DNA from: Eledone cirrhosa
Taxonomy: Eukaryota
Length of the DNA: 64,000 nucleotides
Direction of reading: 5' to 3'
Assembly (NCBI GenBank): GCA_964016885.1
Contig: OZ024743.1
Span: 80,662,001 to 80,726,000, forward strand
Position numbers and translations under genes: made by a program. Below the pieces are notes generated by a model. It saw nothing but the letters and a program-made list of their open reading frames with translations, searched no databases and was not told where the DNA came from. Shown here in pieces: positions 8,668 through 56,130 of the stretch (position 1 is its first letter; each line of letters opens with the position of its first letter).

Positions 8668-9024
8668 TAATATAAGATCAAAAGATGGTTAAAGGAGTTC
8701 CATGTATTTTATTATGCGCATTTCAAAAACAAACATCATCATGCAATAATATTTGTGTTTTCATCAAATAAAACAGGAGAACATGATATGAAGGCTAAAA
8801 AACACTTGTGGATAGTGCAGTTTTAAATCAACATATCTGATGAAAACACAAATATTATTGCATGTTGATGTTTGTTTTTGAAATGCGCATAATAAAATAC
8901 ATGGAACTCCTTTAACCATCTTTTGATCTTATATTATGTATACTCCAGTCCTACAAACTGTAGAGTGCTTCTTATCCGATATCTGCATTGCTTTATTGTA
9001 CTACAATAAAACTCACCTCCTACA
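8668..9024. mobile_element. Family D foldback HHR element
   Basis: 8668-8770 is inverted against 8835-8936, plus a ~88 nt tail. Core CTGATGA at 8837 and GAAATGCGCATA at 8880-8891. Confidence 0.85.
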
Positions 9025-9066
9025 TTATATATATATATATATATATATATATATATATATATATCT

Positions 9067-9384
9067 TCAGCGGTCTCTGTCTTTCACCCTCGCTGCCATG
9101 TCCTGCGTCTCCAAGAGACCGACGTCTGTCCTTAGGGCATCAACATATGTTAACCTTGGTTTTCCTCTTCCAGTATGTCCATGTAGGGGTTTCCATAAGA
9201 ACACTGAGTGCAGTGTCAACTCTGGATGTCGGTGAGCATGTCCAGCTAACCTCAGTCTCCTCTGTGTTACTTTTGAGCTGACTTTTGGGATGCTCCCATA
9301 CAGCTCTGAGTTCTTCATCCTCAGTGTATACTGATTAATGTTCAGAGTCATCTTTAGCATTCTCGTGTAGCACTCATCCACCAC
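9067..9384 (-). mobile_element. RTE-type LINE ORF C-terminal fragment
   Basis: RRLRLAGHAHRH...LWKP.HG...RGKPRLTYVD is typical of RTE-clade C-termini. Confidence 0.8.
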
Positions 9385-9644
9385 CTGATATATAATATTC
9401 TCTATAAAAACTAAATAGGTCCTCAGTAATATTATTCTGATGAAATGACAGTAAATAATAACATTGAAATATTGAATGTCTGCATAACTAAAAGTTTGTA
9501 GATAGCTGTTTTAGGTTAGGTAACTGTTATAGAAACACGTGTCAATAAATTCCTTTCAACTAAACTGTATCCATTCAAATCTTTCTATATATATATATAT
9601 ATATATATATATATATATATATATATATATATATATATATATAT

Positions 9645-9826
9645 AGAAAGGAATTGTGGTAAGGAACCAGATGGACCATAACGTACCAAAGTACACAATA
9701 CTTAGGGTAGTAGAGTGGGTAATAGGAACAAGTATGACGCCGACGGCAGAGCTCCAGCCGTTTCGACGGCTATTTCTGGACGTCGAAACGGCTTGAGCTC
9801 TGCCGTCGGGGTCATACTTATTCCTA
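9645..9826. mobile_element. Family A foldback element
   Basis: Tail plus inverted HHR 3' halves, flanked by (TA)n. Confidence 0.85.
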
Positions 9827-10849
9827 TATATATATATATATATCACTGGTTTCGGGGTCCGGTTATGGGCACCACTCTATATTGGTCACGTGGACGAAAA
9901 AGAAAAAGTATGTGTGTATGTACATATATGTTTATAATACATTATTCACATAGTAGCCATACACACATACACTGTACTCACACACACACCACACACACAA
10001 CACACCACGCACTACACACACTACACACACCACACACACCACACATTACACACTACACACTATACACACCCACCACACACTACACACTATACACTACACC
10101 ACACACTACACACACTACATACACTGCACACTACACACACTTCACACACTACACACTATACACACACACACTACACACACTACTCACTACACACGCTACA
10201 CACGCTACACACTACACACACTACACACTACACCAACACGCAGTGTAGCCATCAGCTGAAGTCTCTTTAAAAAGCAGATTATATTAAAGTGGCGAGAATT
10301 TTCAAATCAATCGTAGTATAAACTGGTATAAGAGAGATAGAGAGAGGGGGAGTAGTTTAGGAGAGGTGGTGGTGTGAGAGAGAGGGGGAGTAGTTTAGAG
10401 GAGGTAGTGGTGTGTGAGAGAGGGGGAGTAGTTTGGAGGGAGATAGAGAGAAGGGGAGGAAGTACTTTTAGGAGAGGTGACGATGGTGATGGTGGTAGTG
10501 TGAGATAGAAATAGAGAGGGAGGGAGTACTTTAGAAGAGGTGGCGGTGACGATGGTGGTAGTGTTGGTGGTGTTAGTGTGTGTGGGGGAGGGAGGTAGTG
10601 TTGTTAGTGCTAGAAAGAGAGAGTGACAGAGAGAGTGTCAGAGTGACAGAGAGAGAGTGAGATGGAGGTTGGTGGGAGCTGGTTGTAGGAGTGATGGTGG
10701 TGTGCGGTGGGGACCCGAGTAAAGGGAGGATGAGTAGTGTGTGGGAGGTAGTTTTAATAGTGTTAGTGGGGGTGAGGGGTGATGTTGTGGCGGTAGATGG
10801 GGGGGGGTTGAAATATGAGGTGGTGAAGGTGTAGTAGGAGGGACATAAA

Positions 10850-53249: not shown

Positions 53250-53320
53250 TATTTTATTATGCGCATTTCAAAAACAAATATCATCATGCAATAACATTTG
53301 TGTTTTCATCAGATAAAATA
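53250..53320 (-). ncRNA. Type I hammerhead ribozyme, family D (element ~53123-53376)
   Basis: Intact CTGATGA / GAAATGCGCATA core with an 8-bp stem I. Confidence 0.88.
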
Positions 53321-53993
53321 GGAGGACATGATATGAAGGTTAAAAACACTTGTGAATAGTGCAGTTTTAAATAACATATATATATATATATATAATTTTA
53401 TATTCATCCCCATCATTTAACGTACGTTTTCTCTGCAGTGGTATGATGGGTCGTCAAAGACTTATTACGTACACGAGTTCCTCTACCAAAAGAACCGAGG
53501 GGTCCCTTACGTACCTGCACCCTGAACTACGTTGAATGTATCACCAACACATATCTATGTATATAGTATTTAACGATCTTGATGATGGCGACTATATATA
53601 AACTCTAAAATATCGAACACATTGGCGTGCAAATACATATACAAGCACACACAAGCATACATACATACATAATACACACACATATATATATATATATATA
53701 CATATATATATAGTTAATACATTAACAGAGAAAGCTAAAAGCGATACTCCGACCAATTTCCAACTCACTCAACAAACATGAGGAAATACCTGATTTTATT
53801 CCCAATTATACGTTTGGGGTGCTGACTATATTGTATTGTGTGGATAATCGGGTGTATTATTTTATACATATATATATACATATATATATATACATACATT
53901 ATATACATATATATATATATATATATACATATATATATATACATATACAAATATATACATACATATATATATATATATACATACATATATATA

Positions 53994-54172
53994 TAGGAAC
54001 AAGTAAGACCCCGACGGCTGAGCTCAAGCCGTTTCGACTGAATTAGCCGTCGAAACGGCTTGAGCTCAGCCGTCGGGGTCTTACTTGTTCCTATTACCCA
54101 CTCTACTACCCTAAGTATTGAGTACTTTGGTGCGTTATGGTCCACCTGGTTCCTTACCACTTTTCCTTCGTA
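53994..54172. mobile_element. Family A foldback element (another, deleted copy at 54550-54683)
   Basis: Inverted arms plus tail in (TA)n. Confidence 0.85.
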
Positions 54173-55744
54173 CATATATATATATATATATATATATATA
54201 TTACGGAATACTGTTGGCTTCTTGCTACAATAATTTCTATACTTTTCATTTATATATATATATATATATATATATATACTCATGATATATATATATATAA
54301 TACAGACACACACTTGTATAGATAATATATATACATACTATGAACAAAAATGTATGTTATATGAAATAAAAATATTTAAATAATACACACACACACATAT
54401 ATATACATGTTTCTATATATAATGTATATATATATATATAAATATATATATGTATACATACACACACATATATATATATATATACACACACATATATATA
54501 TATATATATATATATATATATATATATATATATATATATATATATATTTAACGAAGGAAGTGTGGTAAGGAACCAGGTGGATCATAACGCACCAGTGTAC
54601 TCATTACATAGGGTAGTAGTGTGGGTAATAGGAAAATGTTTAACCCCGACGGCAGAGCTCAAGCCAACGGCTTAATTTTCCTATATATATATATGTGTGT
54701 GTGTGTGTGTGTGTGTATGAGTGTGTGTGTTTACTAATGACTGTGTGTTTGTGTCTGTATTTATATAGTCTATATATATACATGTGTATAAGCTGAACTG
54801 GCAGATGAATCACACGCTGTACATTACGAACCAAATACGGTGGAGCTGTGACAATAACAAGCGTTTCTGGGATATGTCTCAATATGTTTATTTAAATTTC
54901 TCAATATATATATATATATATATATATGTATATGTGTATATATATATATATATATATATATATATATATATATATATATATATATATATATATATGTATA
55001 TGTATACATATATATATATATATATATATATATACACACACACACACACATATATCTAGTAATACAAATAGACGTGAAACGGCAGCGTCTATTTTAAAAA
55101 TATATGTATCTATCGTGCACACAAAACCTCACGTACATGTTTATATATTATATATATACATACGCACACACACGCATACATACATACATACATACATACA
55201 TACATACATACATACATACATACATACATACATACATACATACATATATATATATACATTAATTTTGCGAGGTTTTTTTATATGAAATCGTGTGTCGAAA
55301 CAAATATTGTTATAGTTGGGGAGGGTCATATTGTTGTAATAATATTGCCAGAATTAATAACAGAACACACTCACTGTAATAATAATAATTGTGAAGATTA
55401 AAATCCGAAGAGGGCTGGATAGAGATAATATATAAAATATATAAATCCGCAGAGCTAATATTTATTTGGTTATACTTTAATCTGATATATATATATATAT
55501 ATATATATAACAGACACAAGTATTTGTTTCTGAATTTGTGGACTGTAATAAATTACTCCTTTATATATATATATATATATATATATTATCGAGCCCTCTT
55601 TGGATTTTAGTTTTCAATTTTATTATTATTACTATTATTATTACTATTATTACTATATATATATATATATATATATATATATATATATATATATACATAT
55701 ATATATAAATGTTCACGGGTGTGTACGATAGTGTATAGAAGATT

Positions 55745-56130
55745 ATATTAATAAAAGGAATTCCAACTTTGTGTGATTTACTCGTTTTATTTACAATCCT
55801 TTAAAATTATAATGATTTTATAATGAAATAGTATGGTAGAATATTAAATGTTAAGTGTTAATTGAACAAGTACTTTCATGCTTTCGCAATCTTCCGGTTC
55901 ATATTCTGTGGTGACAGTCAAGTTTGCAATTTTCAACTGTTGAAAATTGCAAACTTGACTGTCACCACACATTATGAACCTGAAGATTGCGAAAGCATGA
56001 AAGTACTTGTTCAATTTACACTTAACATTTAATATTCTACCATACTATTTCATTATAAAATCATTATAATTTTAAAGGATTGTAAATAAAACGAGTAAAT
56101 CACACAAAGTTGGAATTCCTTTTATTAATA
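55745..56130. mobile_element. Foldback element with ~190 bp arms, one HHR per arm
   Basis: Palindrome centred at ~55938. Confidence 0.9.
55975..56013 (+). ncRNA. Minimal type I hammerhead ribozyme
   Basis: TGAAC-CTGAAGA-T-TGC-GAAA-GCA-T-GAAA-GTAC-TT-GTTCA. Confidence 0.88.

Follow-up and report, generated by a model that had tools for sequence, protein, structure and literature searches.

The small palindromic islands that lie in (TA)n tracts of the Eledone cirrhosa genome are, with high probability, 3'-end stubs of Penelope-like retroelements (PLEs), the unequal arms of which likely arose from two opposed cDNAs, one starting at the RNA 3' end and the other at an internal site 38-108 nt upstream. 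The arm that mirrors the other probably formed in the course of insertion. What appears in a TA-rich animal genome as MITE-like hairpins with one unpaired tail would, on this reading, be scars of retroelement insertion, and the islands would be neither DNA transposons nor ribozyme devices, with the tail showing in which direction the sense strand of at least one opposed copy runs. The stretch analysed, hereafter the window, comprises 64,000 nt of the forward strand of contig OZ024743.1 (assembly GCA_964016885.1, positions 80,662,001-80,726,000). The six elements tested here had been listed in an initial annotation, which covered window positions 8668..56130 and proposed that a geometry shared without shared sequence implies a shared insertion mechanism. 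This idea is correct, although not new, as the mechanism corresponds to PLE insertion, which is already published, and the hairpin-plus-tail layout has been described for PLEs.

That all six elements combine a short arm with a long arm extended by a tail was confirmed by locating arms and tails in each of them: the short arm of the inverted repeat abuts (TA)n, and the long arm bears the tail, which measures 38-108 nt. In a self-comparison of the 42 TA-bounded islands of 120-3000 nt in the window, 16 qualified as strong palindromes (island up to 900 nt, arms of at least 38 nt, identity of at least 84%). A one-sided tail is present in 15 of these, with one arm 0-18 nt from a TA tract and 29-146 nt on the opposite side (367 nt where an adjoining SINE is included). 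Under a null of independent ends, for which the chance of exactly one tail is at most 0.5 per element, at least 15 out of 16 corresponds to p ~3e-4 by our own arithmetic. The exception is a symmetric, tail-less palindrome to which no strand was assigned (19244..19644) and in which both arms (19244-19360 and 19528-19644) abut (TA)n. Since 14.3% of the window consists of (TA)n, spread over 148 merged tracts, TA flanking by itself is not discriminating. The tail is part of the repeat unit and not chance flank, as indicated by genomic copies of families B, D, E, F and G and, for the element at 55696, by a PLE 3' UTR.

Family D may serve to illustrate the layout. In the element at 8662..9024 (plus strand), with (TA)n on both flanks, a short inverted arm (8662-8770) and a long direct arm (8834-8942), both 109 nt and 97% identical, enclose a loop of 63 nt (8771-8833), and the tail follows at 8943-9024. 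There are at least 40 copies genome-wide; the 21 that were examined all lie between (TA)n tracts and have a common fixed 3' end, and the tail is present in 20 of 20 fetched genomic copies, seven of which have the loop reversed relative to the tail. Truncations include a copy covering query positions (q) 82-357 and a partial tandem of q1-344 and q130-357. Within the window, a 256-nt copy on the minus strand (53120..53375) is 93-96% identical to 8670-9025, and a plus-strand copy (11609..11893) kept its tail while most of the long arm was lost by internal deletion. Family B (27235..27440, plus strand) has arms at 27235-27287 and 27288-27340 and a tail of about 100 nt (27341-27440); the genome search gave 3,102 first-look candidates, and q1-202 is covered in all 40 scored copies. 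Another plus-strand copy (38133..38322; arms 38134-38171 and 38198-38235) has a tail of 87 nt, and a 5'-truncated copy on the minus strand (28089..28240) consists of long arm and tail without a short arm, with 154 nt 91% complementary to 27283-27436. The family F element (27723..28056, minus strand) has its 46-nt tail on the left (27723-27768), followed by the long arm (27769-27912) and a short arm (27913-28056) that abuts (TA)n. The arms of the family G element (38691..39127, plus strand; arms 38709-38873 and 38905-39069, tail 39070-39127) are 165 nt long and about 95-97% alike, whereas their similarity to the remaining scored copies does not exceed 85%; the majority of genomic copies of this family consist of one arm plus tail (q196-436).

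The family E element (11917..12393, plus strand) starts with an inverted 5' segment of 41-49 nt (11917-11965), which begins at the internal arm/tail boundary, q376, and continues with a nearly full direct monomer (q42-477), so that arms of 41 nt (11917-11957 and 12245-12285) are followed by a tail of 101-108 nt at about 12286-12393. Among 12 loci of this family, five have an inverted 5' segment, at least five are 5'-truncated partial tandems and one is a monomer (5'-truncated examples are L054, L056, L057, L059 and L061), and a partial copy is joined to a full copy via an exact short junction in at least eight. In the five inverted loci the start is always q375/376 and the inner end varies by locus. 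Genomic copies of families E, F and G extend through the tail. The inverted copy appears to be formed anew with each insertion, since in family E the outer end is fixed at q376 with locus-specific junctions, the two arms of the G element resemble each other more than they do any other scored copy, and palindrome centres vary among copies of families A and H.

Exactly one tail is found in all five inverted pairs of family E and in six of eight family G loci, none of which has two. The rule is not strict, because family F includes, next to seven loci with one tail, four with a full tail plus a partial one of 16-29 nt and one with two full tails (12 loci), because a partial second tail is possibly present in two of 40 family B copies, and because of the tail-less palindrome 19244-19644. 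The arm/tail boundary is TA-rich in families A, B, D, E and G, weakly so in the hammerhead-bearing (HHR) family discussed below and not in F, so that microhomology is at most a candidate for what defines the boundary site.

An autonomous RT + GIY-YIG element with a common 3' end was found for the stub at 55696..56127 (minus strand). Its direct copy, made up of long arm (55938-55749) and tail (55748-55696), is preceded by a tail-less inverted copy (55939-56127); by self-comparison, the arms (55744-55937 and 55939-56132) measure 194 nt at 98% identity around a centre loop of 1 nt, and the tail, about 50 nt long, lies to their left. The element is colinear with the end of the 3' UTR of loci L096/L097 (91-94% over 236-249 nt), and its inverted copy ends 38 nt short of that 3' UTR end. 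The ORFs of L096/L097 carry a C-terminal GIY-YIG domain at 28.7-29.6 bits (Pfam cut-off 22.6) and match RVT_1 at E 3e-6 to 8e-6, with a score under the Pfam cut-off.

Family A, with nine copies in the window, provides a second connection. The long form (7821..8639, plus strand) consists of an inverted copy (7830-8309), a direct copy (8310-8562) and a tail (8563-8639); the inverted copy starts at the arm/tail boundary and extends 236 nt further 5' than its direct partner, and both match the 3' UTR of locus L142, a putative autonomous PLE. A short palindrome (13557..13754, minus strand) has arms of about 57 nt and a tail of about 80 nt. Sister copies are located at 9646-9824 and 26767-26952 (minus strand) and at 49450-49659 and 53996-54173 (plus strand), together with one in which the short arm is internally deleted (54548-54681, minus strand) and a diverged one (7145-7304, plus strand). 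The ninth copy (5897..6027, minus strand) is 5'-truncated, as are L029 and L024, and has only long arm and tail; its 5' side is unique DNA without (TA)n, and the 473 nt upstream gave no other match among 40 scored. A genome-wide search with the tail yielded 485 candidates, 15 of them at 100% identity. Arm, loop and tail all map within the approximately 1.07-kb 3' UTR of the presumed PLE parent. In L142, (TA)n is followed by an 849-nt inverted tail-less copy, a partial direct copy with tail, a 794-aa ORF, the 3' UTR and the tail. This ORF matches the RT region of L093 by BLASTP (E 7e-7, 23% identity) and no Pfam family at E ≤ 0.05, so it is this match together with the architecture that suggests a PLE identity for the family A parent. 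Tail-less 3' ends occur at the arm/tail boundary in seven of 11 family A parent loci. In both family A and 55696-56127, long arm and tail are on the sense strand of the PLE.

These structures closely resemble what has been described for EN+ PLEs. In the PLE literature (Craig et al. 2021, PMC8557442; Arkhipova et al. 2013, PMC3846280), insertions are 5'-truncated and partially tandem, often lie in (TA)n, are accompanied by a neighbouring 5'-truncated copy in inverted orientation and bear a short tail on one of their ends only. Correspondingly, copies of families A, D, E and G are often 5'-truncated while their 3' end stays constant; partial tandems (pLTR) were found in family E loci, L142 and L094, an adjacent inverted 5'-truncated copy at the 5' end in the six listed elements, L142, E loci and the HHR family, and a one-ended short tail in 15 of the 16 window palindromes, in all nine HHR-family pairs and in all five E pairs, with exceptions in family F. 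The inverted copy is short by the tail length, as in these papers (38 nt in 55696-56127), RT + GIY-YIG ORFs lie upstream of the same 3' ends, and HHR-bearing relatives are present in the genome. The microsatellite bias is seen in the 21 (TA)n-bounded D copies and in most copies of A, E, F and the HHR family. On the other hand, the tails (38-108 nt) are mostly longer than the 30-40 bp given in those papers, and the (TA)n preference is there reported for Naiads with an N-terminal EN, whereas the ORFs described here have a C-terminal GIY-YIG. Furthermore, most window copies are extreme MITE-like stubs of 160-480 nt, and five families are without identified autonomous partner and HHR.

The initial annotation had also stated that, where a hammerhead ribozyme (HHR) is present, the tail follows 3' of a copy with the same orientation, a statement that is not supported in this window because it contains no HHR. 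No Rfam hammerhead was found at gathering score in the 64-kb window, and a threshold of E ≤ 10 gave none either, whether in 8670-9025 or across 20 TA-bounded islands that total 6,685 nt and include all six elements. Look-alikes of the form CUGAUGA...GAAA occur, within the listed elements, only in D arms (8837-8883, plus; 11710-11664 and 53312-53266, minus); they were rejected as HHRs, being AU-rich, with a helix III unable to close and no Rfam match (in family D, a bulged helix II consists of A and U only, and the two strands of helix III directly adjoin, without a loop). A palindrome with a motif in both arms makes a tail 3' of the motif true by construction. A type-I hammerhead family that scores above the Rfam cut-off does exist in the same genome outside the window (L075-L082 and L143-L151), and its 17 loci have the tail 3' of an HHR copy of the same orientation in ten cases (six single copies, four palindromes), on the opposed copy without ribozyme core in five and absent in two. 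Therefore, tail side marks the sense 3' end of one opposed copy and not the ribozyme. An inverted copy is adjacent in nine of the 17, and each of these nine pairs has exactly one tail. Tail-less 3' ends lie at the same boundary in L078, L079 and L144. In L078, L143, L148 and L149 the tail-bearing copy consists of 34-98 nt of tail without overlap with its partner, and since there is no overlap, these tail copies are not a snap-back of the partner. Work on HHR-bearing animal retrozymes has reportedly been carried out by Cervera and de la Pena. Non-LTR (animal) retrozymes are described as HHR-bearing non-autonomous PLE derivatives (bioRxiv 10.64898/2026.07.22.740005), and the islands share with them a non-coding, PLE-related, multicopy and partly tandem nature, and the HHR family of this genome shares the type-I hammerhead, whereas the window families have no hammerhead and are dispersed stubs, not long tandem arrays. 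A hammerhead is not universal to PLEs: it is present in the pLTR of canonical clades and absent in Naiads, according to PMC8557442.

No autonomous partner for B, D, E, F and G was found by BLAST against 15 PLE loci, which matched only 55696-56127, plus adjacent E copies. These five families are presumably non-autonomous, or derive from PLE families outside this sample. The same result leaves some room for an origin in which only A and 55696-56127 are PLE-derived, while a non-PLE LINE ending in a (TA)n tail mobilised the five other families and classical LINE twin priming produced the inverted arm. Ostertag and Kazazian are said to have shown in 2001 that L1 twin priming gives 5' inversions, and LINEs reportedly also 5'-truncate. 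A young LINE fragment is indeed present at 14508-16448 (RVT_1 + zf-RVT, 99.4% identical to a copy in L097). However, this LINE does not terminate in (TA)n, and the five families have the same PLE insertion hallmarks, geometry and (TA)n setting as the two PLE-linked families, which makes a LINE origin unlikely.

Mobilisation by cut-and-paste DNA transposons, either foldback or Stowaway-like MITEs inserting at TA or elements of the type of Micron, a microsatellite-targeting element of rice, with the tail as carried-along flank, would account for the small size, lack of coding capacity, long inverted arms, TA or (TA)n flanks on either side and large number of copies. It is nevertheless very improbable, and a TA-inserting MITE or foldback was rejected: the outer termini are asymmetric and not inverted repeats, one end being an unpaired tail, 5'-truncated copies with a fixed 3' end occur, some of them in unique DNA without TA on the 5' side, inner junctions differ from copy to copy, and two families align colinearly, in the sense orientation, with PLE 3' UTRs. 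About equally improbable is the formation of palindromes at the DNA level after insertion, through fold-back repair, or through template switching during replication, where (TA)n is fragile and prone to form cruciforms. The abundance of (TA)n (14.3%), the flipping of D loops and the palindrome centres that are often deleted or rearranged (L023, L034, L042, L048 and 11609-11893) fit such a process, but independent copies and unrelated families share the internal boundary at which the short arm stops, this boundary is also the tail-less 3' end of single copies, and non-overlapping opposed pieces are not fold-backs. In non-autonomous rolling-circle elements (HINEs of the Helitron2/Helentron type), an asymmetric terminal inverted repeat is followed by a 3' stem-loop tail, and although 5'-terminal sequence here also pairs with subterminal 3' sequence before a tail, D and E tails contain small hairpins near the 3' end and tandem copies exist, such an origin is the least credible, as TC...CTRR-like termini were not seen, multimers are 5'-truncated instead of 5'-complete, and there is direct colinearity with PLE 3' UTRs.

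In the PLE papers (PMC8557442, PMC3846280), the mechanism of inverted and tandem integration is listed as open. It is quite conceivable, if somewhat doubtful, that the tail corresponds to the constant distance separating two sites on a single PLE RNA at which cDNA synthesis starts, each primed by one (TA)n end, and that PLE integration is (near-)obligate twin priming with a defined second site. The PLE endonuclease would open the (TA)n target, after which one (TA)n 3' end would prime reverse transcription at the RNA 3' end to give the tail-bearing copy, the other would prime at the arm/tail boundary to give the tail-less copy, and the two cDNAs would be joined head to head. Use of the internal start site alone would give tail-less single copies, and a cDNA that crosses the centre might fix loop orientation, which would account for flip/flop loops. 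Such a two-start-site mechanism would yield one tail per pair, tail-less singles at the boundary and flipping loops. Perfect centres, as in 55696-56127 and in 30167-30327 (arms 100% identical), are equally compatible with self-priming and with two primers, but self-priming as the sole route is ruled out by the cases without overlap, where a short tail piece is opposed to a tail-less copy. Twin priming of L1 similarly involves two cDNAs from two target-break ends, an inverted 5' segment and a variable junction, whereas here the second start is fixed at the arm/tail boundary, the copies usually overlap into a palindrome and the enzyme is that of a GIY-YIG PLE, not of an APE-type LINE. If the twin-priming proposal holds, genome sequence becomes a means of testing how PLEs integrate, and the (TA)n tracts, which form 14% of the window, may also be seeded or lengthened by the stubs. 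Thousands of young copies, many of them 97-100% identical, in which the outer boundary is fixed while the inner junctions vary, constitute a natural data set that is useful for studying how inverted and tandem insertions are assembled by PLE GIY-YIG enzymes. When genomes are annotated, islands of this kind should be masked and classed as PLE or PLE-dependent repeats.

The E. cirrhosa genome is very rich in GIY-YIG domains: a search with PF01541 gave 10,595 first-look candidates, and all 150 that were scored are above the cut-off. At L094, 152-nt direct repeats lie on both sides of a PLE ORF in a pLTR-like arrangement (531-682 and 5510-5661), and a fragment of this repeat is present in the window at 50991..51139 (minus strand, 91% identity).

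The DNA analysed here (G000:C4:80662001-80726000, from a genome of about 3.0 Gb) is AT-rich, and (TA)n makes up 9,172 bases of it (14.3%), in 148 merged tracts of which the longest exceeds 250 nt and many are separated by very short islands. The TA-flanked islands of the initial annotation correspond to the sequence lying between such tracts. All six elements named in the initial annotation consist, as it had claimed, of an inverted repeat with one arm prolonged by an unpaired tail. In the family D element (8662-9024) the arms measure 109 nt at 97% identity, the loop 63 nt and the tail 82 nt. 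The family B element (27235-27440) has arms of about 53 nt and a tail of about 100 nt, and in the family E element (11917-12393) arms of 41 nt go with a tail of about 101-108 nt. Tails on the left side are found in the family F element (27723-28056; arms 144 nt, tail 46 nt) and in the element at 55696-56127 (arms 194 nt at 98%, loop 1 nt, tail about 50 nt). The family G element (38691-39127) carries arms of 165 nt at 95% and a tail of 58 nt.

The pattern extends beyond these elements. Self-comparison of 42 TA-bounded islands in the window gave 16 with a strong inverted repeat in at most 900 nt, and 15 of the 16 have one arm lying 0-18 nt from a TA tract and an extension on one side only. The sole strong TA-bounded palindrome without a tail, at 19244-19644, is symmetric, with arms of 117 nt at 93% and a loop of 167 nt. 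The tails belong to the repeats themselves and are not chance flank: with the best 40 candidates scored per query in the genome search, the tail was present in all 20 fetched copies of family D and in all 40 scored copies of family B, and the tails of the remaining families are likewise covered by their genomic copies. The hairpin-plus-tail geometry is real and non-random. A perfect palindrome at 30167-30327 (132-nt alignment at 100% identity, 29-nt extension on one side) has arms related to sequences at 39301-39342 and 49105-49152.

The annotation was right to conclude from this shared geometry that the elements insert by a common mechanism, and the mechanism is the known insertion architecture of Penelope-like retroelements (PLEs). 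For endonuclease-bearing PLEs, two papers describe 5' truncation, partial tandems that give rise to pLTRs, a neighbouring copy that is both inverted and 5'-truncated, a short tail confined to one end, and a target preference for (TA)n (PMC8557442; PMC3846280). GIY-YIG domains are very abundant in the genome, with 10,595 first-look candidates and all 150 of those scored lying above the cut-off. The element at 55696-56127 aligns colinearly with the terminal 236-249 nt of the 3' UTR in two loci with reverse transcriptase and GIY-YIG domains (L096 and L097), and its inverted copy ends 38 nt before the end of that 3' UTR. In the long copy of family A (7821-8639) the arm, the tail and the apparent loop all fall within the 3' UTR, of about 1.07 kb, of another PLE. 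This near-complete parent (L142, G000:C5:14303300-14309100) shows on one strand (TA)n, an inverted copy, a partial direct copy with tail, an ORF, the 3' UTR and again the tail. Its inverted copy, of 849 nt, is tail-less and begins at the arm/tail boundary. The ORF of 794 aa is related to PLE reverse transcriptase regions and gave no Pfam match; a GIY...YIG-like motif can be seen by eye at its C-terminus, with no Pfam score. In both PLE-linked families the long arm and the tail lie on the sense strand, with the tail as the genuine 3' terminus of the element. When families A, B, D, E, F and G and the genome's hammerhead ribozyme family were compared with 15 PLE loci, 55696-56127 was the sole element to match; the partner of family A was identified later by another route, and among these 15 loci no autonomous partner was found for families B, D, E, F and G.

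Three lines of evidence from the anatomy of the copies, namely 5' truncation, partial tandems and the inverted copy, argue for retroposition from a constant 3' end. Truncation is seen in family A, where the copy at L029 and the window copy at 5897-6027 begin within unique DNA and retain long arm, tail and 3' (TA)n. The stretch 5897-6913 had been considered as a longer parent of family A and was rejected, as its upstream part is unique DNA. Family E copies start at query positions 264, 370, 397, 414 and about 425, and the majority of family G copies consist of one arm and the tail. Partial tandems occur in family E: in most of 12 loci, a partial copy and the full monomer of 468 nt meet at an identical short junction. 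An inverted copy is present in five of these 12 family E loci, the window element being one such case; its start is constant at query position 375/376, which is the arm/tail boundary, its end point varies by locus, and the direct copy joined to it starts at yet another point. The arms of the window's family G element are about 95-97% alike mutually and at most 85% identical to any other scored copy; the mirror arm and its partner therefore derive from one source. Of 20 genomic copies of family D (a family to which L011-L018 belong), 7 have the 63-nt loop inverted with respect to the tail, and in L018 the loop is partly palindromised; loops flipped relative to the tail also occur in some family F copies. 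As a by-product, these elements offer ample natural material for studying how PLEs make inverted insertions, and families A, D and E include young copies that are 97-100% identical.

How such pairs come to carry a single tail may be explained by priming at two sites. We infer that one cDNA would start at the 3' end of the RNA and a second at the arm/tail boundary, with a different (TA)n end of the cut target priming each, and that the two would then be joined head to head. Such a process would explain why the short arm borders on (TA)n, why only one tail is present, why some single copies lack a tail, and why loops are flipped in some copies of families D and F. Tail-less 3' ends at the arm/tail boundary were found in 7 of 11 loci of the family A parent. 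Of 12 family F loci, 5 depart from the one-tail rule: one carries two tails, and the other four a second tail that is partial. Not all families have a TA-rich arm/tail boundary. Perfect centres, among them the one in 55696-56127, fit self-priming, the route favoured by Arkhipova et al. 2013 (PMC3846280).

Two proposals in which the tRNA-derived SINE family of the window would share a 3' module were rejected: the similarity to the PLE UTR spans just 26 nt, the SINE simply lies next to family B, and no (TA)n is found at the SINE end. The LINE at 14508-16448 was also rejected as a partner, since its 3' end is unrelated to the tails and has no (TA)n. Helitron/HINE, MITE and LINE-tail SINE readings were dropped in view of tandem copies with 5' truncation, inverted copies and colinearity with PLEs.

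The further claim, that the tail lies 3' of a hammerhead ribozyme copy on the same strand, does not hold in the window, where neither Rfam nor a motif scan identified a hammerhead. None was found at Rfam gathering scores over the whole 64 kb. At E<=10 there was none among the best 150 of 826 matches for the whole window, in which microsatellite 'miRNA' matches predominate, none in family D, and none in 6,685 nt of sequence from 20 islands, all six listed elements among them. Among the listed elements the motif scan found a CUGAUGA...GAAA look-alike only in the family D arms, and there helix III cannot be closed and helix II is without any G-C pair. A type-I hammerhead family does occur in the genome, with 18 of 74 scored candidates above the Rfam cut-off, and is absent from the window. 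When tail side was compared with ribozyme orientation at 17 loci of this family, the proposed rule stood for six single copies, which have the tail 3' of the ribozyme; two further single copies end at the arm/tail boundary and have no tail. The other nine loci are opposed pairs with exactly one tail each, and here the rule fails in five, where the tail is borne by the copy without a ribozyme core. At L078, L143, L148 and L149 the ribozyme-less copy is just 34-98 nt of tail, with no overlap with its partner.

Several other repeats were noted in the window. A GC-rich LINE fragment at 14292-16448 (minus strand) has a 646-aa open frame with RVT_1 and zf-RVT; a copy lying directly at the PLE 3' end in L097, where it has inserted, matches it at 99.4% identity across 1,919 nt, and this LINE family is therefore young. 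Members of the tRNA-derived SINE family lie at 27448-27650, 33056-33255, 36309-36475 and 25111-25234, and on the minus strand at 35136-35313, 44380-44484, 46985-47168, 57640-57753 and 60052-60165. The SINE has a fixed 3' end without following (TA)n and therefore stands outside the TA-targeting system. At 60566-60623 there is a weak tRNA match (30.3 bits). On the minus strand, 45444-47052 contains three open frames of about 500 aa that overlap one another, which suggests a low-complexity repeat; the Pfam matches there (zf-C2H2_assoc3) include no significant single stretch. The tandem array at 35314-35810 has a unit of about 45 nt matching the 5' head of the SINE, in about 10 copies at 45-nt spacing. 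Two 117-nt islands at 12540-12656 and 12831-12947, each between long (TA)n tracts, are 100% identical and represent a recent duplication of an island-plus-microsatellite unit.
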